DNA of 64,000 bases from Hormiphora californensis (lineage: Eukaryota > Animalia > Ctenophora), in NCBI GenBank assembly GCA_020137815.1, contig CM035351.1, positions 8,866,001 through 8,930,000 on the forward strand, written 5' to 3'. A program made the translations under genes and the position numbers. Each line of letters starts with the position of its first letter. The first letter of the stretch is position 1. The notes beneath the pieces were generated by a model, which was not told the origin of the DNA, did not search any database, and was given only the letters and a program-made list of their open reading frames with translations. Of the stretch, positions 1 through 29,569 are shown one piece after another.

Positions 1-56
1 GGAGGGTTAGAACACAACAAAAAGACCCTCTTCATAATAATATTCCCAATAGCAGT

Positions 57-3000
57 ATGACATCACTTCATATAGCATTCCTGACGTTCTTCATTATAGT
101 GACAGCTGCAAGTACCGAAGAATACATCCTAGGTAAGATCGACTTTTTGAATAGAACTATAATTTTGATTTCGAAAACCTGGTACAATGAAGCATATATT
201 CAAATAGTAATTAGGATCTCAAAAATTACTGTAATTATTTAATCCCCAATATCTCTTTACAGAGTGTACAATTAAGACTACCAATTCTCTAAAAAGAGTG
301 ATACGATACTCAGAGTAAGTCAGCTTTAATTTAATGCTAAGAATTAGATAAATCACGATTTATGCGAACCACAATTTATGCGAACTACGATTTACCGTGC
401 ATAAACCTTTACCCGAGGAGTCCTGTAAATCGAGGTTTTATTGTGTGCCCTACTTTACCAATTCAATCACTGCAGTCACGTGGATGAGTGTGGAGTTGAC
501 TATACCTGCTCACAGAACTGTTATCAGAGTGTTATCGACGAAGTCTTCCACGGGTAATTATAACTCTGCAGTCTGCAGTCTGCATTGTAACAAGATTGAA
601 ATCTAATTCAAAGCTGCAAGATCAAGAAACAAAATTAACACATTGAGCATGTTAAAAAAAATAATCTAAAGCTCCTTGCAGATCAAGTGGTGCTACAGTA
701 TCCGATAGGTTCGATATCTCCACGTGTGAATGCAAGCTGAACACCAATGGAACTTTATACCCTGTAAATGACACTTCAGAGTGCGATGAAATCAGGGATT
801 TTACTCAAAGCTGCTTTCTGAATGATTGTAACGCCTGGGATTTGTGGGACAAGGGAGCCGTGTGTGATGTGACTGCAGACTGCACATGGGAGTGCTGGGA
901 AAAGATAAAGGAAATAAAGGCCTCCTACAATAATACTCTGTGCCACTGTCACCATGAATATGCTGCATCCAGTAATGAGGACAATGAACTTTGCGAAAGT
1001 AAGATATAACAACTTAGTGTCACATGAAAACAAGTTTATTTTGTGTTCCCCCCACGGCTCACCTTCATAATAGTATAAATTCTACACCGGCATTGAAAAA
1101 AGGCAATTTTTAATAATGAAAACCATTTAACAGGTGCTTTAAATAAGATTGGAAACTGTACCAACAACCCGCCAATGGAGCCAACAGAAAAAGAGCCAAC
1201 TGAAGAAGGTCCAACTACAGAAGAGCCTGTGAAAGACATGTCAATAACAGTAGTACTACTAGTAGTAGTCGGGATCACTCTGTGTTGTATACTTGTACTG
1301 GTGATTCTAAAGAGATGGTGCCTACATGCTGGGAGGGAAGGTAAGCTGAGATTAAAACTCAAGTACAATATTCAGTGAATATCAAGATCATTTAATATTA
1401 CACAATGACCATGATAAAGAGCTAAACGCGTGATTCTCAAGCTGTATTTGAAGCATCTCAACAAAGCTGTGTTTTCAGTAAAGAGGTCAGGAGATTTGAG
1501 GAAGATGATTCCGTTTATTCAGTGGCACTCCATTAGACTTCTTGGTCACACTGAAGAATACCTGAAATCTGGAAAGGACTCGACGAGACTTGAAAAGCGG
1601 GAGGTGAGTACTGAGTAATATTCTTTTACTCCTGAGACTTCACGCCAGTTTTCCGGTGAGACTAACTATTTGGTCTTCAACTTCCCCACATGCATCAAAA
1701 ATATTGATTCATTTCCCTAAAACTACAATCTTTTTATTGGGTAGAACTATTTTGGGTGGGAGACATTTATAAATCAATTGCTTCAAATAAGTTACACTCA
1801 CGCACCCAGGGGACCCACACAGCATTAGGGCTGCAACTAAGGGTCCCTTACTAACAAAACTTGAACTCAACGAAAATTTAGTTTCGCCTTGACGCAATAT
1901 AAAACCATTAGAGAAGGGTTTTCGTGCTGGTTGCTGCGGTATACCACGACCGCAAAACAGGGTCATGCGGCTTTACACTCGGAAGGGAGAAGGTGAAGGG
2001 AGAGGAGAAAGAGAAGGGTGGGGGTGACTGAAAAACAAGTACGAGCAAGATCAAAGAATATCATCAGGGACGATTGTTCCTGAGATATGCTTCTTCACTA
2101 GCTTATTAAAGAGGGGTAGTGAATTGCACTGCCTGATCGAAAAGGGTAACTTATTCCACAAACTGACTGTTCTATGGAAATAGCCAGCCCTGATCGCTCT
2201 GTGGGTAGCGGGCCCATTCCTAAGTTCAGGGATAATAGCTAGTGTGGTGATATCACGACCCTCACATATATCAACATTCTGACGCGTGGTTCTCAACGTA
2301 GTAGGATCGATGGGTTGAATGAAGTCAGGAATGGGGATATTAGTAATACCGAAAACCAGCTTGTAAAACAATCTGAGATCATAATACTGAAACAGATACT
2401 TGAAAGGTAACATATTAAGGGTACGCTAACCAAAATTTTTTTTCGAGTGCAGGGAAATCTCTCACCGTAGGGTTGTAGGCCATACCAAGGAGACATCAAA
2501 TATGCAATTTTAGCCCTTAAGTCGAATTCATATTTTTGCTACAGCTGTTTAAAAAATGTCCTGAAAATACGTTTTTGGCATCTCAAAAATTTTTTTTCAA
2601 AGATAGGAGCATGAAAATTTGGGGATTTGAAGAGGACATGAAGGTGAATAACCACAAAAAATTTTTTTGCAATCCGAGCTGATTTCCGGTCCTGAGATGG
2701 ATTTCTTTTTTTCCACTTTAACGCCCTATTTGGCAAAGTTCCGAAAACATGTGAAAGCTGTAAATTGGTGAAAAGTTGCGTCTAACGATTATCTAAGTGG
2801 CCATAAATTTTGGGCGTGTCCTTATTTGAGATAAGCTGTACGGAGTTTTTTTTGTGAAAGCCGTCATTTCAGAAATAAATAAATTCCCTGTATCTCAAAA
2901 ACGGCTGATCGTAGAGACCTGAGACTATGCTTAAACGATTCAGAAGGTCCGATTTTGGGGGGGTCTTCTGAGAGACATTTTGCTCCTACTTCAACCGTTT

Positions 3001-6000
3001 TTGCTGTAATTGCGAAAAACAATAACTCATTTTCGCCATCGTGGATTTTTTGTGATTTTGTTTTTGATGATTATAGGGACCCATATGGACCAAATAGTGA
3101 AGGAATTAGCTTGTTAAACATTTTTCCATAGTTTCGGTCCTTTCTTAGCTAAAATTCCCTAATTACAGGATATTGGAGTTTAGCTTTTGCCCTTTTCATA
3201 GAATTTGTTTTTCGCAATTACAGCAAAAACGGTTGAAGTAGGAGCAAAATGTCTCTCAGAAGACCCCCCCAAAATCGGACCTTCTGAATCGTTTAAGCAT
3301 AGTCTCAGGTCTCTACGATCAGCCGTTTTTGAGATACAGGGAATTTATTTATTTCTGAAATGACGGCTTTCACAAAAAAAACTCTGTACAGCTTATCTCA
3401 AATAAGGACACGCCCAAAATTTATGGCCACTTAGATAATCGTTAGACGCAACTTTTCACCAATTTACAGCTTTCACATGTTTTCGGAACTTTGCCAAATA
3501 GGGCGTTAAAGTGGAAAAAAAGAAATCCATCTCAGGACCGGAAATCAGCTCGGATTGCAAAAAAATGTTTTGTGGTTATTCACCTTCATGTCCTTTTCAA
3601 ATCCCCAAATTTTCATGCTCCTATCTTTGAAAAAAAATTTTTGAGATGCCAAAAACTTATTTTCAGTTCATTTTTCAAGCAGCTGTAGCAAAAATATGAA
3701 TTCGACTTGAGAGCTCAAATTGCATATTTGAGGTCTCCTTGGCATGGCCTACAACCCTACGGTGAGAGATTTCCCTGCACTCGAAAAAAATTTTTGGTTA
3801 GCGTACCCTTAAGGGTCAGGAGATGTTCCACATATGTATCATTGGAATATGAAGCTAGTGGTTCATTCCTAATCCATTTAACAGCACGCTTTTGCAACTT
3901 CTCCAGATTTTTCAAACTACCAACATTAACATTAGACCAGATTTGGTTACAGTGCTCTATCAAAGATCTCACCATAGACAGATACAGGGTCTTCTTGTAG
4001 GAACTGCGCTTCAGAAAATAACAAGTGCGACGTAGTAGGTTAAATTTGAAAACCATAGAGGAATGTAGACTCTCAACATGTGTGTTAAACTCAAGACTAC
4101 TAGTGACAGTGATACCTAGATCTCGCTGGCTGTCAACATAATTTAAATAAGTACCACCCAAAGAGTAAAAGTATTTAAAGTAAGGTAAATTACTAAAGGG
4201 GTTCTGGATATAGGAAAGGTTACTAGACACACTCAAAACTTGACACTTAGAAGGATGGAACTTCATCATGTTGCGTTCAGACCAGGCATATAAAGCGTCA
4301 ATTGATTGTTGAAGTGATATATGGTCATTCATGCAATCAATACGACGCCATATTTTGGTATCGTCGGCATAGAGCATGATATTAGTACCCGAGGTAACCT
4401 CAGAGATGAGGTCGTTTATAAAGATCACAAAAAGAACAGGCCCCAGGATAGATCCCTGGGGGACACCAGAACTGACAGGCAGTATATCTGAGCTCTCACC
4501 GTCAACAACAACTTTCTGAGATCTCTGTCTCAGATAACTCTTCACAAAACTCAGGAGATTACCCTCAACTCCAAAAACATGCTTCAATTTGCTGAGTATT
4601 AGGTCGTGGTTACACGAATCAAAGGCACGTGAGAAGTCAAAATACACCACATCTGCACGTGCCTTGTTGTCTAATACTTCAGCAAGATTGTGGGTGAAGG
4701 GTAACATCTGAGTAGTACAGGATCTACCTGCTAGAAACCCATGCTGGCGATCATCCAGGTTAGGATAACAAATCTCTAAAAGTCTCGGCTTAACAAGCTT
4801 CTCCATAGTCTTGGCAACAAGAGAGAGTAAGGATATTGGTCGGTAATTACTAACATCCTTTCTATCTCCTTTTTTATAAACTGGGACAATGGAGGCCAGT
4901 TTCCAGCTCTGGGGAAATTCTCCCTCTCGCATAGATAAGTTAAAAAGCAGCCACAAAGGATAGGATAGAGATCCAGCGCAGTGCTTTAGGACTCTGCCCG
5001 GGATCCCATCATCACCACACGCTTTAGAAGTATCTAAAGAAGATAACGCTACATACACCTCGTTAACAGAGAAACAAACAGAAAACTCAGAATTGTCTAC
5101 CTCAATATCATACTTGCTAATTACTTACTAATTAATTTCAGATGGTTTTTCGAGTTGGCATCAACAAATTGGCAAAGTTCGGAAGGTTCGGAAGGTTTTT
5201 GTTTCCCAATCAGCACGTTGTGATAAAAGTTTTCTCTGAACTACGAAAAGAGAACCATCGTCTTGAAAAAAGAATCTTTGACTCCATGGATAGAGATAAG
5301 TACGCAGAAGCTGTTTTAATTTTAAGTTCTAGTTTCATTTAGTTAATGGAGTTCACAGCTTGTAGTTTTGAGTTTCTATTTAGATACAGAAAATAATCGA
5401 TATACTCTATTTTGAGGGGGAACTAATTTATTTTTCATTTATCAGAGCGTACGAAAACAACATTATAACAGCATTTATCGCTGATGGAGAGGCAGTGAGT
5501 CAGCAGGAGCCGTTAACTACTTTTTTAGAAAAGGTAGCCAGCCATTCCCCTAATTTACCCGCTCTTCGCAGTGTGGTTAACAGTTACTACAGCAAGGAAC
5601 CACTGTAAGTTAAACCCATTAGAGCCTCGTGATGTGAAAACGCACCATCCCAATGTTAGATTTATTCCAAAAAAGCAGCATGAGGGTCAGAATTTGGAAG
5701 CACAGAGATGTATTGCCTTTACTGAACGTTACAAGTTCTCCCTCTCCAGGTGTCTAGTGTTTAACAACTCCCTCTCCAGGTGTCTAGTGTTTAACAACTC
5801 CCTCTCCAGGTGTCTAGTGTTTAACAACTCCCTCTCCAGGTGTCTAGTGTTTAACAACTCCCTCTCCAGGTGTCTAGTGTTTAACAACTCCCTCTCCAGG
5901 TGTCTAGTGTTTAACCACTCCCTCTCCAGGTGTCTAGTGTTTAACAACTCCCTCTCCAGGTGTCTAGTGTTTAACAACTCCCTCTCCAGGTGTCTAGTGT

Positions 6001-7140
6001 TTAACAACTCCCTCTCCAGGTGTCTAGTGTTTAACAACTCCCTCTCCAGGTGTCTAGTGTTTAACAACTCCCTCTCCAGGTGTCTAGTGTATAACAACTC
6101 CCTCTCTAGGTGTCTAGTGTTTAACAACTCCCTCTCCAGGTGTCTAGTGTTTAACAACTCCCTCTCCAGGTGTCTAGTGTTTAACAACTCCCTCTCCAGG
6201 TGTCTAGTGTTTAACAACTCCCTCTCCAGGTGTCTAGTGTTTAACCACTGCAACGAGGGCTCTCTAAAGGACTATCTGGATATCCGGCCCCTTGACCTCG
6301 CCAAGACGAGATCTCTCTTCCTGGACATTTCTCAAGCCATTTCCTTTTTACACGGTCCTCACAGTAATGGGGTAACTATCATTGACGATAATTATAGCTG
6401 TGTCTAGTATAATAGTCTGACCCCGATTTACCGGAACCCCGATTTACCGGGAAGATAAACGTAACAACTGATTATCACACATCTAACGGCTAACAATTCT
6501 CCTGCAGGTGCGAATCATCCACAGTGATATCAAAACGGACAATATTTTTGTGCAGCATCGCCGAGGGAAACTATTCTTTCTCCTAGCTGATTTCGGTTAC
6601 TCTCTGGTGTACACACCCGGTCCCCAGGCATTTTCTAATTTTAGTCCACGGGGTTACACTCCGAGTCATGCTCCTCCTGAGTGGGCCTTTCTGGAGCCCA
6701 TGGAGTCAATATCAAGTACACAGTTGAATGAGGAGCAGGAAAGCGCTTATCAGATGCGTGGTCGCCATCCCACCGCCATAGACATCTACCAAATGGGGTT
6801 GGTGATGTGGCAGGCTTTCAGTAGGACCTCACCCTGGCAGGACCGGGTAGTAAATCCTGCAGGGGGTAGGGACATGCTTAGAGAACTATTCAGGAATGAT
6901 TTCCTGGCACGACCTGAGTTCCCTATCTTGGACAAGGGGGACAATAGACAAGTAGTGTACGAGAAATTGAAGGGGATCGTTAGAAGATGTTGGCACCACA
7001 GGATTGAAAGTAGACCAAGTGCAGAGACACTTCACAAACTTTTAATGAAGGCGTTTTCCGATAAGGATTCTAAAAAAATTGCATATTCGGAAGTTCTATG
7101 TTTAGAAGACTATTCGTCTTGTAATCATCTGAATCCGTAA
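57..7140 (+). CDS. Receptor Ser/Thr kinase 1: signal peptide, 2 GAS1/GFRalpha-like Cys repeats, TM, non-RD TGF-beta/activin type II-like (TKL) kinase; 10 exons
   Basis: Phase-consistent GT-AG exons: 57-132, 263-314, 476-553, 682-998, 1134-1340, 1479-1603, 5142-5299, 5446-5604, 6230-6371, 6508-7140. Signal MTSLHIAFLTFFIIVTAA; TM ITVVLLVVVGITLCCILVLVIL; kinase motifs VVIKVF, GSLKDYL, HSDIKTDN, ADFG, APPEW, DIYQMGLVMW, CWHHRIESRPSA. Confidence 0.88.
1890..5118 (-). mobile_element. 5'-truncated CR1/L2-group LINE (RT ORF2 and 3' UTR) in intron 6 of kinase 1, interrupted by a foldback element
   Basis: ORF 3757-5058 has RT motifs NYRPISLLS, QHGF, DFSRAFD, GVPQGSILGP, YADDTK. Removing 2419-3808 plus one TTAA joins it in frame (EHLLTL-N-MLPFKYL) to ORF 2051-2413. 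Outer ends approximate. Confidence 0.9.
2419..3808. mobile_element. Non-autonomous foldback DNA transposon with TTAA target duplication (Kolobok-like termini)
   Basis: TTAA at 2415-2418 and 3809-3812; termini GGGTACGCTAACC...GGTTAGCGTACCC; near-identical inverted arms about 2419-3022 and 3205-3808; about 180-bp spacer; no transposase. Confidence 0.9.
5738..6246 (+). repeat. 30-bp tandem array (17 copies) of the intron 8 acceptor/exon 9 junction
   Basis: Unit ctccctctccag|gtgtctagtgtttaacaa, with AG ending at 5749+30n up to 6229. The last copy runs into exon 9 (CLVFNHCNEGSL). Confidence 0.95.
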
Positions 7141-7405
7141 ACTATCACCAAAAATATACCATTCACTTTATCTGCATACATACTACCTTATTTTTATTCA
7201 GAAAATATGAGCCAAAATTAGACCACATCTTAATATTTTATTGCTATAGTTCATAGTTTGATGTTTTTAACTGTTTTCACCAACTTTTTTACTAATATTT
7301 GTTGGCAAATTGCCAATGGCAATGTTTTCTACTTAACTCTTTTCTTTTATTTCAAAACTTAACTCGTTCGTATTGTGACTATGCTTGCTGACAAATCAAC
7401 ATTTT

Positions 7406-7553
<148 letters not shown>

Positions 7554-7950
7554 ATGTCTCGCCCAATGTCAGAGCGTCAGAGCGATGCCAAACCAGTAAC
7601 CAGTAACCACTCTCTGTTCGCCTGAACAACTCAACCTGTCAAAAAGCTGTCAGGCCAATGCTCTGACCACAGTTCTTGCGCGCTCTGACAGTCAAAAAGG
7701 GACCATTGTCAAAAATGGGAACATTGTCAAAAGCTGTCAGAGCGTTTGAGGGATCAGGCATCTATAAATTCTGCAGAGCACAACAGAGTAAACTGAACTG
7801 AATTAATTTTAGTTCTGTTCAAACAGGATCGAGCAAGTTGATTTACCTTTCGAATCTGTCAGAGCATTGGCCTGACAGTTTCGAATGTAGTCTCCGCAGA
7901 TAAGAGATAACTCAACATTACGTATTCGCATATTTCATTGTTCTACTATC

Positions 7951-8633
7951 ATGGAATACAACATTAATATATCATGGGCAGGACTGTACGTCAGTGCGAT
8001 AGCCAACACCTGCTATAACTCAGTACATGTGTCTCACATTACAGATAAGGGGTGTGTGTCACACACTGTGTGCTGTTGTTTTGTACATGTTTCTAGCTAG
8101 CTGTCTTATTGTGACGGTGCAACAATATATGGGTATGCATCGCAATATGTTAATATCTTGAAAACTCAGCTGACTAGATTTAACCCTGCATGTTAATATT
8201 ATTTAGAGGAGGGGTTATCTTATTGGTTTGAATTAACTGGTTGAAATAATTCACCGTACTGCTACATAATAACGCACAATGTGTCTTTGACGCACAACTG
8301 ATGGCGAAACACCGCGGAATATTAATTGTGGTGACTGTGCTGTGTAATATATTTATTCTCTCCCAGTATTTGGTGTCCAGGAGCCTCCCTCCCAGTTTGC
8401 TGCTCAGCTGCACATAACAGCACCAACTACAGAACATAACAACTATACTGGTGCAGCAGGGATCCAGGGGGTACAGAAGATTTGTCGCCCGGGCAAGTTC
8501 TATGTGCCCCAGGTGTCAAACTGCCGGAGATGCTCTAAATATGTTGGTGCGTGTGTGTTAAGCGGGGTATACTTGGTTCATTGTCACCCTGGTCATATTT
8601 GCATTGTATCAACTGTACAAATATCGCACTCTC

Positions 8634-8698
<65 letters not shown>

Positions 8699-11622
8699 CT
8701 CTCTCTCTCTCTTTCTCTCTTTCTCTCTCTCTCTCTAACGCTAACTTTTTAAATGTGTTACAGGTAAAAAGTACAGTGGTTACAATTGGACTTCATGTGA
8801 GCCCTGTGAAACGTGGCCTCAACGTCCCTGCTGTAAGTCATCCCAGTTTCCATTCAGAGATCGAGGTGTTGTTTGAGCTAAATCAAATCATTAACATCTA
8901 ATGTTTTGTGGTAGGGGTGTTGATGGAACTATTTTCAGATTGTGATTTAACGGTGGATAACTTACATTCCATTTCCAACTCTCTTGGTTGTCATGACTAC
9001 AATTGTACCCAGGATTGCTATCTCCAGGCACGTGGTAACGTGACCGGTATATGGGACATGTACGACACCACCGCCATATCCACCATGGTCAACTACCAGT
9101 CTTGTTCCTGTGAGGGGGCCGCTGATGTGGGTGTATGTGAGAGGGACAGGGCCTTTACCCACTCGTGTTTGGTAAACGAGTGTGGGGAGAGGTGGGGCTC
9201 CTTAGGGACCGATCTCTGTGACTTCTCCATCTCAGACCGATGTGAGAGGGGGTGTTGGGAGTGGGTTCAGAGGAACTTGAAGGATGGCATCCATCTGTGT
9301 CACTGCAACCAGTATCTCAAGAGGAACGAAACATGCGAGAGTAGGTACCATGTCGGACCCCCCGGGCCTCAATTTACCGGACAAAACCCTTTCCCCCGAG
9401 CAACCCAGTAAATCGTGGTCCAACTGTAACGTATTTTCCTCGTATTAGTTTGATTAATACAAATTACAACGTTTACCAAAGTGGATTTAGTTGCCAGGCC
9501 TATTACCAACACACATCATCCAAATGAACCCTCATGTTTCAGATTACCGTGAAAAGTTTATCCTTTGTGCTGGAGGGGGGCCAACAACAACTCACCCTGC
9601 TACTACTCCTGGTCCCATAACTACATCTGCCCCTCGTCCTGCCCCTATAAGGTGGACTACTATCACCCCACCGTTACTACTTATCCCACTACTCCTGTTG
9701 GTGATTTGGTGGTGTATTCGCTTCAGAACTCCCCCAGGTACCCCCTCCCCTCCTCGCCCCACCCGGCCCCCTCGCCCCCAAGCCTCCCTCGCCCCAAAGC
9801 CTCCATCGCCCCAAGCCTCCCTCCCTTGTTGAGTAAGGGGTGACCCCTCGCCCCAAGCCTCGCTTCCCCCTCTCAGTTTTATCTCACGGTACCCCATAAA
9901 CAGTTAAACTATTTTACTGAATATTCTGAGATCTGAGCAAGAGTAGTTTATTCTGAGCCATCTATAAACCATGACATTTCTTCGCCCTGTGCAATCGTTT
10001 AAAGGTGCCCCTCCCCAGTTAAAATATCGGATGGTATTGGAGCGATATCTCCTTATGTGGTATGGAGTTCAATAAAGTTCATTGGACACACAGGAAGGTA
10101 TCTAGGACACGGGGGAGACTGGCGTCTACTAGAGAAAAGAGAGGTAATTTTATTGGATGTTTTGATATGTATGTGATTTGCATTTATACGAGTTGTTTTC
10201 AGATGGTTATTCGAGTTGGCATCAACAAGTTGACAAAGTTCGGAAGGTTCGGAAGGTTTTTGTTTCCCAATCAGCATGTTGTGATCAAAGTTTTCTCTGA
10301 ACTACGAAAGGAAAACCATCAACTGGAAGCTGGTGTGTTTAAATTCCTTGATCAGAAAAAGTAGGTTGTTGGTCTGGTTGGTTTTACAGTTTCTCCACAT
10401 AATATGTTTGTCTGGCGGCGCCAGACCCCGATTTCGAAAGTTCACTCAGATGGGGTCCATATTTTTCGATATAATCTATTACCCCACTCACATCTCTCCA
10501 GGTGTCGCGAGAACAACATCAATACTGCGTTCATTACTGATGGAGAAGCGGTGACTCAGCAACGGCCCCTAATTGACTTTCTGAAACGAATTGTCAGCCA
10601 ATCACCAAACCTGCCCGCCCTGGGAGAAGCTGTCAGTAGTTACTACTGCAGAGAACCTCGGTAACTATTTAACTAATTTGACTCCTAGTCGAGCAGCGTG
10701 CGAGATGTACAGCCAGTGCCTGACAACCTAGTTGGTGTTGTTCCTATTTATCTGTCACTCAGTAAGATGGGTTTTTAACCCCCTCCCCCACTCAGCTGCC
10801 TTATACTAGAGTACTGCAATGGTGGATCTCTTAAAAAGTATTTGGAAACCAGAGCTCTTGATTTGGCCGGTACTAGATCTCTGTTTCTGGATATTTCTCG
10901 AGCCATTGCTTATCTACACGGTCCGCACGGTCAACAACAGGTATTTTCATATTTTGTGGGGGTCTGAGATGGGGAATTATTTATATTGCATTTTACAATA
11001 ATCTAAATCACCCCCCCCCCCCCAGGAATCAATAATTCACTCTGATATCAAGCCTGATAACATCTTTGTGAAGCGGAAACATCGCCATCTTGTTTTTGTG
11101 TTGGGTGATTTTGGCCATTCAAAGTGTTGTACAGCCTGGAGTGCCCAACATGGAATGTGGAAACCCAGGGGTTACACTGATACTCACGCACCCCCTGAGT
11201 GGGCTTTTCTGGGACCCATGGAGTCACAGGGAGAGTTGAATGAGGAGCAGGAAAGCGCTTATCAGATGCGTGGTCGCCATCCCACCGCCATAGACATCTA
11301 CCAAATGGGGTTGGTGATGTGGCAGGCTTTCAGTAGGACCTCACCCTGGCAGGACCGGGTAGTAAATCCTGCAGGGGGTAGGGACATGCTTAGAGAACTA
11401 TTCAGGAATGATTTCCTGGCGCGACCTGAGTTCCCTATCTTGGACAAGGGGGACAATAGACAAGTAGTGTACGAGAAATTGAAGGGGATCGTTAGAAGAT
11501 GTTGGCACCACAGGATTGAAAGTAGACCCAGTTCAGAGACACTTCATAATGACCTCAGAAATGTGTTTGAAAACCGAATTGAAGTGGTTTTATCCAATTT
11601 AGTTAACAGAGATACTGTTTGA
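7951..11622 (+). CDS. Receptor Ser/Thr kinase 2 (paralog of kinase 1) with an extra N-terminal TNFR/Eph-like Cys motif; 11 exons
   Basis: Exons 7951-7985, 8101-8132, 8367-8546, 8764-8832, 8915-9340, 9543-9737, 10019-10143, 10203-10360, 10502-10660, 10796-10940, 11026-11622. Putative signal MEYNINISWAGLCLIVTVQQYMVFG; TM PPLLLIPLLLLVIWWCI; HSDIKPDN, GDFG, APPEW. Kinase intron positions and phases match gene 1. The first two exons are less certain. Confidence 0.85.
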
Positions 11623-12533
11623 AATATTAATTGTGAAACTGGTGATAATTTATTTGTCCGACAAAATAACTGCTTATTATTGCATAATGAATAAGAGCAG
11701 GTCATAATCATGACGATGATTTGTAAGTGTGTATCTGTGCATGATTACACTTTTACACTCAACCCCTTCTCTCATGTTTGGAACGCGCGCCGCCGAATGC
11801 CTCAAAATATATCAATTGTGCGCGGGACGCGCAAACGTGCACCCTTTTCCCCGTTCAGCGGGAAAAGGGAGTTGAGACGCGGGCCGGAAACCAGAGCATC
11901 ATCCTAGTCGGGGTCCAAGACCATGGTGGTGGCCACCGCCCACGCTCATAAAGCCTACCCTGAATACCACTGCTATATTCTATGAGATTCAGACAGTGGA
12001 GTATCGTGGAATGAACGTGGTCAGTTAGACATGGTGGCCCATGAGAGGCCGAGAGGGCCATGGCTTTAACCCTACACCTTTCCAGTTTCCATTGGACTCC
12101 AAACGTGCTAACTCAAACTTCGTTAAGTTTGAAAAGACTGTTAGTTTGGAATGTGGTTTCCCTGCACACCCTTGCCAAACAAAGGAGCCTGGGTATTATC
12201 CAATTTACCAAATATGCAGCCTGCATATATGCTTGGTACTTGCCTTGTTCAAACAATTTGGTACGTGATATTCCTGATAAATGACGGGTATGCGTTGTCA
12301 GAGGTGGAAGGGTTGCGTGCGCGAAATAGCGCGCGGATAAACTTAGCTATAAAGAACCGACCGCGCCTTCCATAAAGTAGGAGTGGGACACGTCACGGTG
12401 TCACACTTTGTTACAAAGACACGTTTCTAAATTCTACGTTTTGGAAAATAAATAAAAGTGGTCAATAAGTTACAGTATAAAATAATAAAAACAGTCTCTT
12501 TTCGGTTTTATCGTTGCTGCTCTCTATCCCGTT

Positions 12534-13347
12534 TTATCTTCGGCCCCTGAATCCGCCACCACCACCACCTCGACCTCTAAATCCACCGCCACCACCTCGG
12601 CCTCGGCCCCCACCTCGACCACCGCCTCCCCTGCCTCTGAAGCCACCTCGGCCTCGACCACCAGGGGTTCCACCACCAGCCCTCTTCACCTTAGGAGCGG
12701 GGGGCTTGGGAAGGAATCTGGAGAGCGGCAACAGTTTCATGGGGTTGATGTAAAACGGCTGAAAAAAAGAGAGGGTCAATTAGTTGTTTAGTTATGCTGT
12801 TGAGAGTTTGAAAAAACTGCACCAAATACTACTCATAAACATAATATATACACACCTGTTTCCGTTTGAAGGAGTCAGCCTTCATGTTTGGTAGTAGTTT
12901 GACACTCATCATGTACTCGTTAATTGGTCCAAATATCTCGTCGACCTTCCCAACTTGTTCCTTATTTTCCAGGTAGATGGGGGCATTGAAGTATGGTACC
13001 ATATCGTTATCTGCACGCAGCACCAAGTCTCCCTCACAGGAGTTCATTAGCTGGGGAGGGAGGAGAGGGTAAGATGGGGAATGATCATGATAATATAGCA
13101 TGTATTATAGGGGTGGGGTCATGAACTGGGGGAGAGGAGAGGGTTAGTGGAAACAATAAAAGATGGGGAAGGAGTAGAGGGGAATATAATAGTGGGGGAG
13201 ACAATTAAAACACAAGATACAGGGACAAGTTACCTTTCCGATTTTAGTGACGGAGTCTGGGGGTCCTTCATCGTAATGCCTGCCTCCACCTCTACCCCCT
13301 CCACGTCCACCTCTCCCACCGCCACGTCCACCACCTCGGAAACCCAT
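12534..13347 (-). CDS. GAR1: H/ACA snoRNP subunit 1 (GAR1)
   Basis: Exons 13347-13234, 13050-about 12856 and about 12758-12534. Core VPYFNAPIYLENKEQVGKVDEIFG and FYINPMKLLPLSRFLP, flanked by RGG boxes. Confidence 0.96.
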
Positions 13348-13968
13348 ACTGCTAGAGAAATGAGATTATATTGAGAAGGGAATTATACTGATAGGGATTG
13401 TGTGTGTGAGAGAGTGGGCGAATGAATGTGTATGTGAGAGAGTGGGCGAATGAATGTGTGTGTGAGAGAGTGGGCGAATGAATGTGTGTGTGTGAGAGAG
13501 GGAGAGAGATTGTGTGTGAGAGAGTAAGAAAAACACGCCCGATCATAATAAGAAGTCCTTCAAATCAAAAATAAATTATAATCACACACTCCAACACTCA
13601 GATCACACATTAAGGACGGAACACAGAAAAAAAGAGAGCAAAAAACATACATAACTCGACAAGCATATATATTATTTGTTTAACCCTTTACATAAGTTTA
13701 TATTCGGAAATTACTTGCTGAAGATAATTTAAATTACTAATTTACCATTTTCTCGCAGAAAATATTCTCTTTACAACCTTTGTTACAAAAGACTAACCAA
13801 TAAAAATAATAGAGGTTAAGATTGATATATATAATTGACTACTGGTTAATTATAAATATCTGTATCTGAACCCAACCCTAAATCCCCAACCACCACCACC
13901 AAATATTAAAGAAGTGTCAGATATCTAAAATGTGGCCAATCTAAACAGGCCATATGTGTTCCCCCTTT

Positions 13969-16786
13969 TTAGGCAGCCACTACAGCGCAGCAGGTAAACT
14001 CCCGGCTCTCTCCCGCCTGTAAGGAAGGAGTTAGGTTAAAAGGAACTGGGGATATAGTGGGTCATATAGGACTTAGTAGTGAGACATGCTAGCTGTCTAC
14101 ACAAACGGGAATGATTGTTAAGGCCACGGTAAATTGAAACTACTAATTGGGGGCTAATTAGCTAATTACCTGGACAATGTTGCTGATAAGGAATCCCTCA
14201 GGACAGATGATATTATCATCATCAGTAGTAAACTTATCACACTTGGATCCAATAGTAGGGGGTATCTCCCTGGGAAGTAATGAGTGTGTCAACTTACTAT
14301 GTGTTTAGAAATGCTAAACAGAGAAAATCACCCAAACAGGGGGGGTTCCAACCTATTTTTTTGTATTTTTTTGTATTTTTTTGTACGGACCATACATAAA
14401 AGTATCCAAAATTCCTGTTTTTTTCCATACAAACAATACAAAAAAATACAAAAAAATACAAAAAAATAATGAAGGATGTGGGTGCGTGAAAAAAGTATAA
14501 ATAATACATGCACATGAACATAAATGGAACCCAGCTATACATAAACGGTAAGAAATTGCGATTCGGGGAAATTTCTCGCTTAGAAAATACGATTTGAGAA
14601 CATTTTCTCGGTAAGAAATTGCGATTTGGAGAAATTTCTCGCTTAGAAAATACGATTCGAGAAAATTTCCCGAAAATTTTCTCGGTAAGAAATTGCGATT
14701 CGAGAAAATTTCTCGCTTAGAAAATACGACTCGAGAAAATTTTCTCGGTAAGAAATTGCGATTCGGGGAAATTTCTCGCTTAGAAAATACGATTCGGGAA
14801 AATTTTCTTGGTAAGAAATTGCGATTCGGGGAAATTTCTCGCTTAGAAAATACGATTCGAGAAAATTTTCTCGGTAAGAAATTGCGATTCGGGGAAATTT
14901 CTCGCTTAGAAAATACGATTCGAGAAAATTTTCTCGGTAAGAAATTGCGATTCGGAGAAATTTCTCGCTTAGAAAATTCGATTCGGGAAAATTTCCCGGT
15001 AAGAAATTGCGATTCGGGGAAATTTCTCGCTTAGAAAATACGATTCGAGAAAATTTTCTCGGTAAGAAATTGCGATTCGGGGAAATTTCTCGCTTAGAAA
15101 ATACGATTCGAGAAAATTTTCTCGGTAAGAAATTGCGATTCGGGGAAACTTCTCGCTTAGAAAATATGATTCGAGAAAATTTTCTCGGTAAGAAATTGCG
15201 ATTCGGGGAAATTTCTCGCTTAGAAAATACGATTCGTGAAAATTTTCTCGGTAAGAAATTGCGATTCGGGGAAATTTCTCTCGCGATTTTGGCATGCTAC
15301 ATATGTAAAATATGTATATATTTTGTGCTAAATTGCGTGAAATAGCGTGGAAGAATGTTTAAAAACAGTAAAAGTTCGAACAATAATGGTAAATTACCAT
15401 ATAAAACTGTTTTTATTTTTTTGTTTTTTTTGTACTTTTTTGTATTTTTTTGTATTTTTTTGTATTTTTTTGTTTGAGGAAACCCGTGTTTTTTTCCGTA
15501 CAAACGTACACGAAATAGGTTGGAACCCCCCCCCCAAACATGATGAAAATATGGAGCCCAGGCCAAGTATGCAGATCTAGACAGTCTAGACAGGCAAACA
15601 TTGAATCAGGAAAATATTGAAAACGAGAAAATCAGCGGAAAGAAAATCATGCTCCCTCAATTTTTAATTACAAACTCAGATCGTACATGCACATCTTGAG
15701 GCACCTTTTCACCGGGTGTTCCAACACCCGCCTCGCCCCTTTGTCCCTGTCGGCCGTGAGATCCGGGAGGTCCCTCGGGCCCCTCTGGTCCTTCGGGTCC
15801 CTGGGGTCCAGCAGGTCCTTGTTCACCTGGGGCTCCAGCCTCTCCTGCGATGGAGGGGAAACATTGTTGAGAATAGATTATTGTGTTTGCTGAAGACGTG
15901 AAGACGTGATACACAGTGATCTCGAAAGCTTCTGTCAATTTATTTGATTTAGTACCATTATATCGTTGTCTATCTTGTTAATTATTGTGTTTGTATTATA
16001 ACAACACGAATAGTAACTATTATTGACTATTGAGAAATAAAAAGTATTTTCTCACCCTGTGGTCCGACAGCTCCATCCTTTCCAGCAGCACCGTTCTCAC
16101 CAGCAGGTCCAACAGGTCCAACAGGTCCCTCAGGTCCCACAGCGCCTTGTTCACCCTGAGGTCCAGTAGGTCCAGTAGCGCCAGCAGGTCCAGTTTCTCC
16201 AGCAGGTCCGGCAACTCCCTGAGCACCATCTTTTCCATCAGCTCCATTAATTCCAGCGACACCCTGTTCACCTTGTTCTCCAGCAGGTCCAGCGGGTCCG
16301 GGAAGACCTTGTGCCCCGGCAGGTCCCTGGTTTCCAGCGGCTCCCTGGGGTCCAGCAGGTCCAGCGGGACCCCTCATTTGCTCCTTGTCAGACAGAATTC
16401 CCTCTAGTTCAGATACACGGGAAGAGACAACGTTGAGCTCTTGGGAAAGTGCCTGGGGGAGAAATTAACCCTGATTAGCTGTGTCAATTGCAATTAGACT
16501 AGTACTGTAATAGGGACGTGGGCTGTAAACCTGTTAGATAATGTGTGACTGTAACACCACAGCCGTGTGACTATAGTAACACCACAGCGGATGGTAAACT
16601 AACCTGGAGTCCCTGAATGATTTCCTTGGTGTGATTTTCCTTTTCCAGGACAACAATTCTCATTTGGAACCAGGATGCGACCAGGGCGAAGATGACAGCA
16701 AGACACACAGTGGGAAGGAGAGATCCAATTCCCTCTGGCTTGGGGCCAGGGTGGACAACGGTGCCGCCTTTGTTCTTAGAAACCAT
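13969..16786 (-). CDS. Type II transmembrane collagen-like protein: short cytoplasmic N-terminus, TM, coiled coil, Gly-X-Y, small Cys-rich C-terminal module
   Basis: Exon 1 MVSKNK...LLPTVCLAVIFALVASWF...GLQ; exon 2 ALSQELNVVSSRVSELEGIL then GXY; exon 3 GXY to PGEK. Inferred last exons are 14269-14170 (SKCDKFTTDDDNIICPEGFLISNIVQ; needs one extra C removed from a C5 run) and 14016-13969 (AGESREFTCCAVVAA*). The 3' linkage is inference; the alternative stop is at 15657. Confidence 0.75.
14339..15532. mobile_element. Non-autonomous TIR element (MULE/foldback-like) with 8-bp TSD and internal minisatellite
   Basis: TIR gggggggttccaacctattt / aaataggttggaaccccccc; TSD cccaaaca at 14331-14338 and 15533-15540; subterminal (tacaaaaaaa)n / (tttttttgta)n in inverted orientation. 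Confidence 0.82.
14545..15282 (+). repeat. 63-bp tandem repeat (about 11.5 copies), itself a dimer of related ~31-bp subunits
   Basis: Unit cggtaagaaattgcgattcggggaaatttctcgcttagaaaatacgattcgagaaaattttct. Confidence 0.95.
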
Positions 16787-17012
16787 CCTGATTCTTTAAG
16801 GGGCATTAGAGTTGGATGGCTTGTTGGAGACATTAGAGAAAACAAAGTGATTCTGTAATCTGATAAGTATCAGCACTTGAAACAGCAAAAACTATTAGAA
16901 TATCTTGTAATAAAAAACAAATACAGATTTACTTAGTTGGCTCTATTTACACACAGTCACTGTATTATACAGACAAGGTTACATAGTTTAGTTAATGATT
17001 ATATTTAGTGCA

Positions 17013-17372
17013 TCATGTTGCACTTTCTGCAACTCCTCCCTCCAGCTGCTGGCCTTCATCTCTCAACCCTTCCCTCCTTTCCCTCTCTTCCTCTTCCTTT
17101 TGTCGCTCATACTCCTGAACAATGTACCAATACTTGGGTCCAGTGATACCGAAAAAGTCTGCCAACCACTCCCCCATTCCGTCAATGACACCCAGGGTCT
17201 TGCTGCCCCCTAGACAGGTGTAGTGTAGAAAGTAACCAGGCCAAGTTAGTTTGGAAGTATCGACCGGTTGTTGCTCCTCTTCCTCTTGCTCGTCTTCTGT
17301 ATCAGTGAGATCCTGTGACTCGAATATCTCCCTGTCAACAATACCAACTGTGCTGGGGTTTTCCGTTGTCAT
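17013..17372 (-). CDS. FAM177A1: FAM177 family protein
   Basis: Acidic tract, then VDTSKLTWPGY...TLGVIDGMGEWLADFFGITGPKYWYIVQEYER, matching the recalled FAM177 motif (DPTKLTW..Y...DFLGEKIA..LGIS.PKYQY.I.EY.R). Confidence 0.85.
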   Translation of the reverse strand: MTTENPSTVGIVDREIFESQDLTDTEDEQEEEEQQPVDTSKLTWPGYFLHYTCLGGSKTLGVIDGMGEWLADFFGITGPKYWYIVQEYERQKEEEERERREGLRDEGQQLEGGVAESAT

Positions 17373-17397
17373 ACTAGGGATAGGAAACGATTTGTTA

Positions 17398-17647
17398 GAG
17401 GCGATTCAAAAAGGACGTAGGGGGGAGGTAGCCGATTTCGGAATCTCTGGACAAAGGGGGAGGGGGGTTGACGCAATTTGGAGTCCAAACTGATTTTGGA
17501 CTGTCCAAGGTTTTACTGATTTAACTAGATATAGGTAAACGAAACTCGGACAGGGGGAGGGGGGTCTGGCAGAATCGGACAGGCCTGGACAGGGGAGGGA
17601 GGGGGTAAAATTACCAAAAATCACGGACGTCCTTTTTAACTCGCCAC
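17398..17647. mobile_element. PIF/Harbinger-type MITE, 250 bp
   Basis: TTA on both sides; imperfect TIR gaggcgattcaaaaaggacgt / acgtcctttttaactcgccac. Confidence 0.75.
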
Positions 17648-17687
17648 TTAAGTAACCCTTCTTTATTGTTATTGTTTACATTTGGAC

Positions 17688-18157
17688 TACTAGAGTACCC
17701 GAGCTATGACAATGCGCAAAAAGGGGTGGCACGCGACTTTAACCACGTGGTGATCTAACCGCTCCTACTATCATACACATTGGGTTTTTGAAAAACAGCG
17801 AGGCGGGTAAATCATTTACTGTAACGCGCGAATTTTTCCAAAAAAGCGCTGCTTTTTTACGCCGCGCGCGGAACCTAGAATTACGCGCGCAGTGTAAAAT
17901 TTTAAAATTCATTGAAAATTTCCTCGCGTTTTATGTCGCCAAAAAAAGTCGACGAAAAATTCCAAATTCGTGAATTTAGAATTATAAGAACTCCGTCACT
18001 GTTGTAAAGATCGGATCAAAAATCTGAGCCCGTACTTACACCCGCCTTGGTCCAAAGTACCAGTGTACAAATTTTCAGGGGTCTAGCTCAAAAACTGTAG
18101 GAGGAGTAGGGAGAAAACAATTATCGGACTAACATTTTGGAATTTATTATATGGACT
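17688..18157 (+). mobile_element. Possible Helentron/DINE-like non-autonomous element
   Basis: Starts ACTAG, ends tttattatatggact, with an internal caaattttcaggggtctagctcaaaaactgtaggagg block recalled as typical of such elements. No TSD seen. Confidence 0.4.
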
Positions 18158-18281
18158 TATTCTCAAAAGCTGCAGAATTATTATTCCCAAATCACGGCAT
18201 TTCTTCTCAGTTGTGAACTTAATGATACCGCAAACGGTTCAGCCGCTGATAATCTGCACCAGGTGGTAAAAACACGAGCAA

Positions 18282-18665
18282 GAAGGATCCATAATATAGT
18301 TCAAGAGCCTCCAAGAGCGCACCCCATCCAAGAGAGACCAAACTCAAGAGCGCACCACAATCAAGAGAGACCAAAATCAAGAGCACACCACAATCAAGAG
18401 AGACCAAATCAAGAGCGCACCACAATCAAGAGAGACCAAATTAAGAGCGCACCTCATCCAAGAGAGCTCCCTATCCAGAAGATACCAGATGTGGTGCACT
18501 CTTGAATTTGGTCTCTCTTGATTGTGGTGCGCTCTTGATTTGGTCTCTCTTGATTGTGGTGTGCTCTTGATTTTGGTCTCTCTTAATTGCGGTGTGCTCT
18601 TGATTTTGGTCTCTCTTCATTGTGGTGCGCTCTTGGAGGCTCTTAAACTTTATTATGGTTCCTTA
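18282..18665. repeat. Foldback structure built from ~30-bp tandem units in two opposing arms
   Basis: (caagagcgcaccacaatcaagagagaccaaa)-like units on the left arm and their reverse complements on the right; ends aaggatccataatatagttcaagagcctcc / ggaggctcttaaactttattatggttcctt. Confidence 0.85.
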
Positions 18666-19288
18666 GCGCCAAAAGGTATTTTCATTTTGAAACAAAAGAG
18701 TTTGAAACAAAGTTGAAAAAAGTTTGAAACAAGGTTGAAAAAAGTTTGAAACAAAAAAGTTTGCCGCAATTTCAATCTCCGCGCCGCGCATACTTTGTAA
18801 AAAATTGCGCGGCGCAAATTTTGCGCGTGCTATTTTTCCAACATTTTAAATTTAATCGTTTTAACTTCCCCATATCAAGCGAATGATCTGTTTCAATTAG
18901 ATTAATGAAATGAAACAGCACTTTAAACTTTGTGAAAATATCAATATCGAATTGAAACATTAACAAAGACTAGCTAGAAAGATCCTATTCGCCAGGAAAG
19001 TCTATCTTTCAGTTTCTCTCCGGCTCCCACTGGGAGTCCCACTCACAAATACACGTATACGCTCATAAAAGCACAAAATACAATAAAAATACCACTGTCT
19101 GATGAGTGATGCTTGGCCACCCTGAACATTACATAGAGGTATGGAAATCCCACACAACTGAACACCATAACAAAGCTAGTGTTCAACCCAACTTGTCTCT
19201 ACATACAAAACCTAGTCAGTCTGCTGAAGCCTACATGTGTTGTCTCGACTGGATATAGAATGCTACATGACATTATAAATCATGTGTC

Positions 19289-21668
<2,380 letters not shown>

Positions 21669-22163
21669 AGCTACACAGCGATAACAATTAATTAATCAAT
21701 TAGATATAGAAGGGCAGAATAGTTGAGTGATCACATTTTGGAAAGAAATAATATCTATCCTGGACTGAGTACCACACCAATATGATTCGATGCAAAGGGA
21801 AAAGGAGTGCTTTGCTTGCATACAGTGGTATTATAGAGAGAAAAGGAGAGCGTGTAGGGGTCAGGGACAGTACTAATATACATGTATATCAAGAGGTAAG
21901 GCAGTGAACACAAGACTAATTTGTAAATTGAATACGTCAGTGAAAATACCTAACTATAAATTAACATATCAATTTAGACTACTGGGAAGGATAAAAATTC
22001 ACCCAAGCTTGCGATCTATGTTAGGGCAGAAAACCAATTATATAACCTGTCTTAGTGCCTACCCCAATTCTCACTCTCCCTCACTCTCCTCATCTCTAAC
22101 CACGCTACAAAATCATATAAATAAAGCAGTACTTGTTCCGTCACAAATCACATTCTCTCTCTC

Positions 22164-23379
22164 TCAGCTAGTCCGAAGATGTTTATTAGATGGTCCTGGA
22201 GTGTCTTCCCCAGCTCCTCCTCCTCCCCCTCCTTCCTCTGTCAGGTCACTGACTTCTCTCTTTTTTGAATTCCCTGGGGTTCCCTGTAATGATACATTAT
22301 TATGCCAAAAATGGGAAAATTATGGCACTTTTATAGACATTAAACAGGACCTTTAAATAAATAATCCGTACCGAGACAATGTAATGATCGACAGTGCAGC
22401 ATTCCTGGTAACACTGACCTTACTATAGTTCCACCGTTTGCTGTAGAACTTCATCAGCAGGTTCCTCTTATCCGCCACTATAACCTGGGGCTCTGGATCC
22501 GTCTCTTTTACCACTGATATGTATTGTATCGGCCGTTTACACTAGAGACAGGGGATGGTGTTACAGTTTACACTAAAAACAGGGGATGGTGTTACAGTTT
22601 ACACTAGAGAGACAGGGGATGGTGTTACAGTTTACACTAGAGACAGGGGATGGTGTTACAGTTTACACTAAAAACAGGGGATGGTGTTACAGTTTACACT
22701 AGAGAGACAGGGGATGGGGTTACAGTTTACACTAGATACAGGGGATGGGGTTACAGTTTACACTAGAGACAGGGGATGGGGTTACAGTTTACACTAGAGA
22801 GACAAGGGATGGTGTTACAGTTTTGGAGACTAGATCTAGAGAAAGAACCACTAACTTTCCTTAATACAGTCGGACCCCGATTTAGTGGCATCCTCGGGGG
22901 GAAAAATTCCTGCCACTAAATCGGGGTGCCACTAAATAGGGGTCAAATAATGTTAATTTCCTATATCGGGGGAAACAAATCCTGCCATTAAATCGGGGTG
23001 CCACTAAATCGGGGTGCCACTAAATCGGGGCCCGACTGTATTCCTTAGCCCAAAGTGAAACAAATCAAGTTGGACAAATTGTTCGAAATTGGTGATGCAA
23101 TCCCCTCTTATGTTCGCGCTTTGCCCGGATGGTAGTGGAGGGCCCTGTGTCACCAAGGTTCGATAACGTGAACGACAAACGTGTAATTCCTTAGTCCCCA
23201 AAGGAGTCTAAAAAGTGAGGTAAACAACTCACCACAGTTTTATTTCTGTCGTAAGAGGCGAAGTTGCTTTTGTTGTGGATAGGTAGATTTAGTAGGCATG
23301 TCTCTGTGTGTTTTGGCACCCCACTACTACTACTGCTGGTCCCATGACACACCTTATCCTCTCCTTCCTCCTCGAACAT
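22164..23379 (-). CDS. DDA1: DET1- and DDB1-associated protein 1
   Basis: Exons 23379-23233, 22541-22419 and 22283-22164, all phase 0: LLNLPIHNKSNFASY..|CKRPIQYI..EPQVIVADKRNLLMKFYSKRW..|KKREVSD..NKHLRTS*. Compare recalled DDA1 [42 protein letters not shown]..KKR. Confidence 0.88.
22536..22822 (-). repeat. 31/33-bp tandem array (about 9 copies) of the DDA1 exon 2 acceptor
   Basis: Minus-strand unit ctgtaacaccatcccctgtctctag|tgtaaa. Confidence 0.93.
22867..23038. mobile_element. Tc1/mariner-type MITE
   Basis: TA flanks; TIR cagtcggaccccgatttagtgg / ccactaaatcggggcccgactg. Confidence 0.85.
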
Positions 23380-23784
23380 GGTGTCCTAATATATTGGGAA
23401 TAATGGGACTAGTTTAGTGGGGGTGTTAGAGGAGGTGCTGACTGTTGGAGAGTTGTATTTAGGATCAAGGGTTGGATGGGAGACTGTCCTAATATATTGG
23501 AGATAATGGATTGAATAAACATAATATTGAGGAGAATGGGATTGGTCCAATGGGGTTTCAGAGGATTTAGGATCAAGGGTTGGGGTGAAATGAAATTCAA
23601 AACACGTTGCTTTTCTAATAAGATATAGAGCATTAAACAGCAAAATAAAGTGCTAAAGAATCGTCACCCTCTCAACAAATACAACACCAAATAAAACAAA
23701 AGAACTCAAACATCAAAATGTTGGTATCTGAATAGAACCCGGCGGACTTGTGCCATAATTATAGCTAGATAAAACATTCTCCCA

Positions 23785-24070
<286 letters not shown>

Positions 24071-24091
24071 ATCGTTTTCTCTACCACACAA

Positions 24092-26492: not shown

Positions 26493-26688
26493 CGTCACTG
26501 AGAAATAGTGAAAAATGTTACTAGCAAATATAAATTATCAAATGAACGCATACATCATTTTAAGTAAAACTGTGGTATAGGATAAAACAATTAATAATAT
26601 AGTTAACAGTAAAAATAATAGTAAAACTAAAGTTCAATAATTCTCTCTGATCTATGAACAAATAAACACCATTCGAAAACAACACATT

Positions 26689-28428: not shown

Positions 28429-29569
28429 TCTGAAAAAAATTTGGCTTTAAAAAGGTTTTACAACAAGAATTATTGCATTATGTATTCATAATGCGGTGTT
28501 TCCCTGCCCTCCGTCGACAGGATCAGTATCACACTATCAGTATCACAATATCAAGGCTTGGTCACAATGTGAGATGCATGCGTCCTGTATGTATATGCAG
28601 TTACACAGCTGTTTTACTCTACCCTCACCCCTTCAGCAACAGTGTTGTGAGCGCCGCGCACAGCTTTGAAAAATAAGCGTCCTGACATCATATTTCATCA
28701 AAACAGTTATTTGATTTTATGAAGGAGCAGTTACTATGCTGCTACCGTGACACACGCGATTTTGACCACGCTCGAGTTACTATTTCAAATCCGAGATTTC
28801 TAAACCCTTTATGATCTTTTTAGCACACGTGCTAAAACGATCATCCGGGTGGATGCCCTTCGGGCATCCACCCGGGCAGGGAAAAAATCAGGTAAAGCAT
28901 AAATCAATATGGGTCGTTCTGACATTGAATCTCTAAATATCTAAATGATCCATTGATGAGAGCACTGAGCAGGAGATCCACAACCTTGGCAAACGCTGCG
29001 CGGGATAAGATTGGCAAACGTTGCTGGCCCCCGGGATAAGGCAGCGCTTTTCAAGGGATAAGGCAGCGCTTTTCAAGCGCTTTTCAATCCACAACCAAGA
29101 ATTTGAGGAATTTTCAAATTTTTTTTTTTTTTTCGAAAATTCACTAACCCCAACACCGATTGGCATCACTTTCCAACAGCCGAAGAGAAGCTGCCGAAGA
29201 GAGAAAGGGGGTAACCGTATGAAGAGTTAATCGCGATGAGTCTCATTCACATTGGGTTCGATCATTTGCCCCCGGTGTTGGGGAATTTTCCCCCGGTGTT
29301 GGGGAATTTTCAAAACGTTTTTCTTACGTGGGAAAGTGGACTCAACGGACAACGACACCGGGAAATATATATGTAACACGCGAAAAGTAAAGCCAGTAAG
29401 CGAGGCATTTTTATGCGCGGCGCGATTCGACTCAGCTCAGCTCGAGTCGACTCGACTCGCGACCTCCGGTCTTTTTTTGACAAAACGTTCTCAACTTGTC
29501 CTGTGTCCCGTTTTTCCTTCTTTTTTCAACTTTACTTTTCTCCTAACCGATCGTTGCTAAAAGCCTTTG

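Follow-up and report, generated by a model that had tools for sequence, protein, structure and literature searches.

A mirage-like minisatellite of 17 acceptor copies in a ctenophore receptor-type kinase gene, probably spliced out through its last copy

The accessible text of PMC3087553 describes, in amphioxus, minisatellite-like duplications of intron/exon boundaries that carry AG/GT signals and are unstable in length whilst regular splicing is undisturbed, and proposes such boundary repeats as a route to new introns. These repeats, termed mirages, have been found in Adh3 and in the globins BflGb6 and BflGb9 (PMC3087553, PMC3902484), to which the available part of PMC3902484 adds troponin C and PGBD5. 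In the human CBS allele 844ins68 the boundary of intron 7 with exon 8 is duplicated and, according to the text accessible for PMC2630376, the distal copy is strongly preferred and a normal mRNA is made. Human variable-number tandem repeats (VNTRs) at donor-side junctions are known from F7 (intervening sequence (IVS) 7, 37 bp), 6-16, CBS IVS13, LAMIN B2 and PDGF; the accessible pages of PMC1557585 report that the site beside the unique exon is used, with 6-16 and CBS using two neighbouring sites too. Lastly, introns can be gained by tandem genomic duplication, in which a duplicated exonic AGGT gives an intron at a new position (PMC3443670 and PMC3265369, as far as their open text goes). Here we describe an array of 17 acceptor copies at the 3′ end of intron 8 of a receptor-type kinase gene (gene A) of the ctenophore Hormiphora californensis, in a stretch of 64,000 nucleotides from contig CM035351.1 (assembly GCA_020137815.1) that is referred to below as the window. 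A literature search with limited coverage of subscription journals found no ctenophore mirage, and the accessible parts of PMC10078293 and PMC13196383 hold no acceptor-array case.

Tandem Repeats Finder (TRF) placed a repeat at 5738-6249 with a period of 30, 17.1 copies, 98% matches, no indels and a score of 996, an occurrence far above chance. Read unit by unit, it is a minisatellite of 17 x 30 bp on the plus strand (5738..6247). Each unit consists of 12 nt of intron end (pyrimidine tract and YAG) and 18 nt resembling the start of exon 9 (exon numbers are those of the first-pass annotation, not counted from the start codon). That annotation had described a 30-bp unit present 17 times at a 3′ splice site, a multiple of three and stop-free, with YAG in every copy (TAG in one) and GT directly behind it, and all of this was borne out: the spliced frame of the unit reads CLVFNNSLSR, and both YAG and the following GT are kept in 17/17 units, making them potential cryptic splice sites. 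Its statement that the exonic part is exactly the first 18 nt of exon 9 holds for 16 nt only, as 15 of the 16 extra copies end in AA where the exon has CA. Thirteen of the 17 units are identical. The variants are copy 6 (A29C), copy 12 (T24A), copy 13 (C10T, changing CAG to TAG) and copy 17, which is the true exon start and carries A29C relative to the other units. A29 is therefore found in 15/16 extra copies and is missing in the terminal one, a picture of homogenised units with a distinct boundary copy. Every unit moreover contains a further YAG (TAG, 8 nt inside the exon); splicing at that site would cause a frameshift and an immediate stop. The 30-bp unit was not found elsewhere in the 64-kb window. 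On its sequence the array is a mirage minisatellite in the amphioxus sense (PMC3087553, in its accessible text), its repeats lying head to tail across an intron/exon boundary.

The first acceptor (5738..5749, +) would end an intron of 145 nt; it has no YTRAY within 40 nt, and a TTTAC lies 28 nt upstream. It is followed by 16 exon-start copies and 15 internal acceptors (5750..6217, +), and then by the last acceptor (6218..6229, +), which closes an intron of 625 nt. The first acceptor likely marks the ancestral position, because a 145-nt intron matches both the equivalent intron of the neighbouring paralog (gene B, 135 nt) and the median of the window introns (141 nt, n=21).

The last acceptor is the one joined in the only spliced contig, which came from run X7, a seawater library labelled RNA-Seq whose RNA status was guessed by the search tool. 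This single contig of 224 nt (depth 2.6) joins 5467-5604 to 6230-6315 (138 + 86 = 224): it aligns over 5467-5606, its loose end continues as the terminal copy, and it shows 0 differences on 6230-6315. It contains no intron and zero repeat copies. Since it differs from gene A at 2/224 positions and from paralog B at 82/224, it belongs to gene A. No contig of X7 fell on the compared repeat bins. Joining of exon 8 to 6230 is consistent with the regular mRNA of a mirage, as seen in one contig of depth 2.6 from an ungenotyped animal. The first-pass annotation had stated that its reading would fall if only the acceptor at 6230 is ever used; the contig speaks against that reading, within the limit of one contig at that depth, next to which minor isoforms are possible. 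The last-exon contigs of X7 were excluded as evidence for gene A, as they carry the paralog B letter at 6909. A further run with the same organism label, X17, possibly of RNA, shared nearly no sequence words with the query.

Four of the 17 listed runs were compared, as contigs, with both flanks of the array, each flank carrying two units. The repeat closes on itself as a cycle in X4, where the contig depths are 640, 98 and 600, against 52-80 in the flanks; the depth ratio corresponds to ~8-14 units, compared with 13-14 exact 31-mers in the window array. An X4 contig on the flank differs from the window at 3 of 573 positions. The repeat is a closed cycle too in X6, which is a different sample from a different study; here the summed depth on the repeat is 12,000-30,000, a figure obtained by summing overlapping contigs and too uneven to give a copy number. 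Either of these samples may be the source of the window. The array is thus real, and the possibility that it might be absent from sequencing reads, allowed for in the first-pass annotation, is met by its presence in both runs. That it might be an artefact of assembly gains something from contigs being unable to span it, no listed piece covering its full length, but the closed cycles in X4 and X6, the ~8-14-fold depth over the flanks in X4 and the copy-specific variants within the window largely refute this, and we give it hardly any credence. In X8, from a related species, no array was seen: positions 5734-5797 have no depth, and one contig of 126 nt matches 6214-6306 starting at its letter 34, the pattern expected of a single-copy junction. 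Because the X8 run shows none, the array is likely younger than the split from that relative. Gaps in the cover of X4 and X6 where the array is entered and left (5759 onward on the unique path, 6248-6276, and intron 8 in X6) were not taken for single-copy alleles, as holes prove nothing.

The seemingly designed look of the array was compared with chance. When duplications of the junction were simulated at 10 acceptors taken from genes A and B, 1380/4140 were in frame and 1171/4140 were also stop-free (28%). Three random substitutions spare the AG with a probability of 0.81, and GT directly follows the acceptor in 7 of the 21 window acceptors (read by eye). In its reading frame, freedom from stops and retained AG the array does not exceed chance. 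A second acceptor duplication lies at 35811-35949 (+) in an unrelated Pro/Gln-rich gene, in two copies, with 35842-35949 as the duplicated stretch; here the intron end and 17 nt of exon recur at 35851 and 35932, at a spacing of 81 nt that keeps the frame and adds no stop; the intron would be 135 nt long with the first acceptor and 216 nt with the last. Because this second case sits in an unrelated gene of the window, a mutational process would seem to lie behind the junction duplications. Moreover, nine copies of a 31-33 bp unit lie at 22535-22823, upstream of a minus-strand CDK-like gene; the unit has a pyrimidine tract and TAG on the minus strand and follows a short open frame on the plus strand, and is possibly another junction array.

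We put a probability of roughly 0.75 on the array being a young mirage-type acceptor minisatellite that is spliced out mainly via its last acceptor and leaves the kinase unchanged. A single tandem duplication, taking in the last letters of intron 8 and the first of exon 9, would have founded it, and it would then have grown as minisatellites ordinarily do. The first-pass annotation had named, as one option, a nascent intron formed by tandem duplication; the duplication origin is supported, given the 145-nt intron beside 135 nt in paralog B and the window median, whereas the nascent intron seems improbable. The donor of exon 8 would pair mainly with the last acceptor, so that the 16 extra copies leave with the intron. 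This acceptor may be chosen because it alone adjoins the unique exon body and its donor, the ancestral exon of 142 nt being defined by cross-exon recognition. Through the duplication the downstream copies would also have received a branch-like TTAAC that is missing at the first acceptor. Built from exon sequence, TTAAC stands 15 nt before the AG end in 15/16 downstream acceptors, and a similar motif is found at 14-23 nt in 8 of the 21 window introns; judging from its sequence and position, it may act as a branch point. This difference can account for copy 1 being passed over, though it leaves the advantage of copy 17 over copies 2-16 unexplained. RNA hairpins that hide the upstream acceptors were considered and rejected, the array as RNA being unstructured (z +5.55). 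The array would persist because it is cheap: a mis-chosen acceptor stays in frame and adds residues beside an existing insert. With three substitutions among the 16 extra copies and none of the array in the run of the related species, we infer that it is young.

Where extra copies would fall in the protein was placed on the AlphaFold model of a relative, P0005 (mean predicted local distance difference test score 78.4), in which strands at 61-66 and 107-112 enclose helices at 77-87 and 94-101; the strands are what we take, from general kinase knowledge, to be beta4 and beta5. By alignment to this 37%-identical relative, on which the placement relies, the exon 8/9 junction is the first residue of strand 107-112, and exon 9 starts at position 74 of PF00069. 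The copies had been thought to enter at the gatekeeper/hinge, and this is not so: by the alignment the junction is the first residue of the strand that precedes the hinge. Provided that beta5 and the hinge come from the terminal copy, the model suggests that extra copies would likely lengthen the loop after a family-specific two-helix insert, with the hinge unbroken. In paralog B an Arg precedes the Cys, as would be the case at each copy junction of the array. Foldseek gave TGF-beta-type receptor kinases at the top with 16-17% identity, which shows the fold and not the family.

Several points weigh against removal through the last acceptor. Intron definition in genes with short introns would favour the nearest acceptor, here that of the 145-nt intron. 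The evidence from expression is the single X7 contig, and rare variants are lost from contigs; the same pattern would also follow from a processed copy of the gene, and the animal behind X7 is ungenotyped for the array. In X8, intron 8 has no cover and the 126-nt contig is possibly that of a paralog. Both acceptor duplications of the window are in frame and stop-free (2/2), for which the probability is ~0.08 at the 28% rate. The internal donor CAG/GTGTCT scores 2.83 on a small matrix (21 window donors, read by eye), and 10 of the 21 real donors score lower. In a study cited in the accessible text of PMC1557585 the proximal copy of duplicated globin acceptors was used, and the same text reports that two pseudo-sites are used, next to the authentic site, in the human donor arrays of 6-16 and CBS intron 13. 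By analogy, some product with 10 or 20 extra amino acids is plausible. A young in-frame array might be leaky, yielding a ladder of isoforms in steps of 10 residues within the kinase insert, the ladder being set by allele length; this we regard as unlikely.

The first-pass annotation had gone further and proposed a splice rheostat, in which several acceptors are regulated and 0-16 extra CLVFNNSLSR blocks tune kinase activity. Every copy is indeed in frame, stop-free and in possession of its YAG, the branch-like motif precedes 15/16 downstream acceptors, and limited ladders are known for human donor arrays (PMC1557585, accessible text); products might also fold, the site lying beside the family-specific insert. 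However, these features are at chance level, the array is missing from paralog B and from the run of the related species, and near-identical units would give no handle for graded regulation. With the sole spliced contig using the last acceptor at zero copies, and no contig of that run on the array, the rheostat is left unsupported and strikes us as improbable. It is also quite unlikely that the first acceptor wins in animals that carry the array, adding 160 residues, and that the X7 contig came from an animal without it. This would give an intron of typical length (145 nt) and a frame that stays open (737 codons from 689), and fits an ungenotyped X7 animal. Yet the array is present in the window and in 2/2 compared samples of the organism (one possibly the source of the window), the X7 contig equals the window at 6275 where the X6 and X8 contigs differ, and copy 1 is without YTRAY, with an AAG lying 14 nt upstream of the point where it ends.

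A nascent intron could take the form of an upstream acceptor combined with an internal AG/GT donor, giving a micro-exon of a multiple of 30 nt, or of stepwise removal at AG/GT. The donor CAG/GTGTCT is mid-range among the 21 window donors and above 97% of the 642 GT sites in 1-12000, and a micro-exon is possible on these letters. A model leading from mirage to intron is set out in PMC3087553, and in PMC3265369 a duplicated AGGT yielded an intron that worked at 6-16% (both as far as accessible). Against this, a micro-exon adds at least 10 residues, which are missing in the contig. Splicing to copy 1 would rebuild the donor as ACT/GTGTCT, which at -2.39 scores below 21/21 real donors; by score it is thus not the usable rebuilt donor of a recursive splice site, and stepwise removal of the array appears unlikely. 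The textbook mechanism, according to the open text of PMC3443670, needs an exonic AGGT. Here the duplicated AG/GT sits at an existing acceptor, and because of this, skipping all copies only lengthens intron 8. We consider a nascent intron improbable, and removal through the last acceptor remains the preferred reading.

Gene A is, on its sequence, an intact receptor-type kinase gene. Its upstream exons (689-998, 1134-1340 and 1479-1603, +) encode a Cys-rich region, a hydrophobic segment and the juxtamembrane part, and the frame is open to the stop at 7140 with the last acceptor and likewise with the first. Exon 7 (5142..5299, +) holds the kinase N-lobe with the lysine motif VVIK, and exon 8 (5446..5604, +), covered by the X7 contig, the family-specific insert of two predicted helices before beta5. 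The unique part of intron 8 (5605..5737, +) starts at the donor ACT/GTAAGT, and one X4 contig covers 5186-5758. Exon 9 (6230..6371, +) encodes beta5, the hinge and the next helices (CLVFNHCNEGSL...) and matches PF00069 positions 74-115 (E 0.011), and the last exon (6508..7140, +) carries HSDIK, DFG, APPE and the C-lobe (PF00069, E 9.5e-11). The PF00069 match of the protein, which comprises the Cys-rich region, the hydrophobic segment and the kinase domain, reaches 42 bits (cut-off 31.7), with VVIK, HSD, DFG and APPE in the open frame. The closest named protein is from Pleurobrachia bachei (77% identity over the last exon). The layout recurs in full-length relatives at 33-39% identity, as does an NHCN/NYCN/HYCK motif after the strand, and the hinge of gene A is therefore family-typical. 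Neither a full-length product nor one with the repeat turned up in protein searches, a weak result as only 3 near relatives were found. The glycine-rich loop (5142-5200) is non-canonical, reading KFGRFGRF in A and B; GxGxxG is missing in the four aligned relatives, while the Lys, HxD and DFG of this kinase family are conserved.

Paralog B follows gene A in tandem and shares its intron positions. Its equivalent intron (10661..10795, +) is 135 nt long and in the same phase, and alignment confirmed the single acceptor at 10795 that had been noted earlier. Of 150 codons aligned between the two genes, 63 are the same, 43 carry silent differences and 44 encode another residue. Identity between A and B is 94% at 6650-7037 / 11168-11549, 92% at 5136-5267 / 10197-10328 and ~63% in exons 8-9, with one difference across 6722-7016, which suggests patchy gene conversion between the two genes. 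Protein P0002 of P. bachei resembles B at its two ends and A in a central stretch (ESISSTQL). Moreover, X6 and X8 show several contig variants and raised exon depth on 5140-7200, which suggests additional members of the family or a pooling of alleles within the two runs.

Other repeats and elements lie in and around these genes. The 3.5-kb intron of gene A (1604-5141) contains a minus-strand fragment of a reverse transcriptase (3757-5124, RVT_1 E 1e-32) and, beside it, an apparent 1.4-kb element with long inverted arms (~2417-3810, by eye). Intron 9 holds at 6420-6460 a short CCCCGATTTA-type motif with a summed depth of 360,000-820,000 in three DNA runs; this is the end of a very high-copy element, and similar ends are found at 22867-23040 and 35138-35245. 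Further arrays are a palindrome-rich 63-bp unit repeated ~12 times (14546-15280) and a degenerate 43-bp unit repeated 25 times (37614-38724). A neighbouring J-domain gene has its best Atlas match in a cluster that is most frequent among Ctenophora (score 0.89), which is no more than a lead; with the P. bachei protein, it led us to place the source near Pleurobrachia.

If removed as we propose, the array would be an everyday by-product of unstable repeats and a pitfall for annotation, in which a gene predictor could add 160 false residues. Mirages would likely extend to ctenophores, and so would not be an oddity of amphioxus or of bilaterians. With 17 in-frame acceptors, nonsense-mediated decay would not mask mis-chosen sites, and complementary DNA would show the choice directly. 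Should the last of the 17 beat the site of the 145-nt intron, this would point to exon-side recognition in a genome of short introns. A leaky ladder, if true, would give a receptor kinase an insert that is heritable and tunable; the array would also be the first ctenophore mirage, as far as the literature search goes, and would offer a natural experiment on exon-side acceptor choice in an early-branching animal with short introns.

Compared with the described systems, in each case as far as their accessible text goes, the array resembles the amphioxus mirages in having tandem copies of an intron/exon boundary with AG/GT in the units; BflGb6 is also acceptor-side, and the 30-bp unit is within the 10-72 bp range of Adh3. 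Unlike BflGb6, which has 3-6 units, the kinase array has 17 near-identical units, all in frame and stop-free, in the short-intron genome of a ctenophore. It shares with the human junction VNTRs a minisatellite that reiterates identical splice sites, although theirs are donors and these are acceptors. An AG/GT within the duplicated piece recalls intron gain by tandem duplication, but here it is not an exonic AGGT, being instead the acceptor of an intron common to paralog B. As in CBS 844ins68, a junction is duplicated and, to judge by the X7 contig, the distal copy used, with one extra copy of 68 bp in CBS against 16 of 30 bp here.

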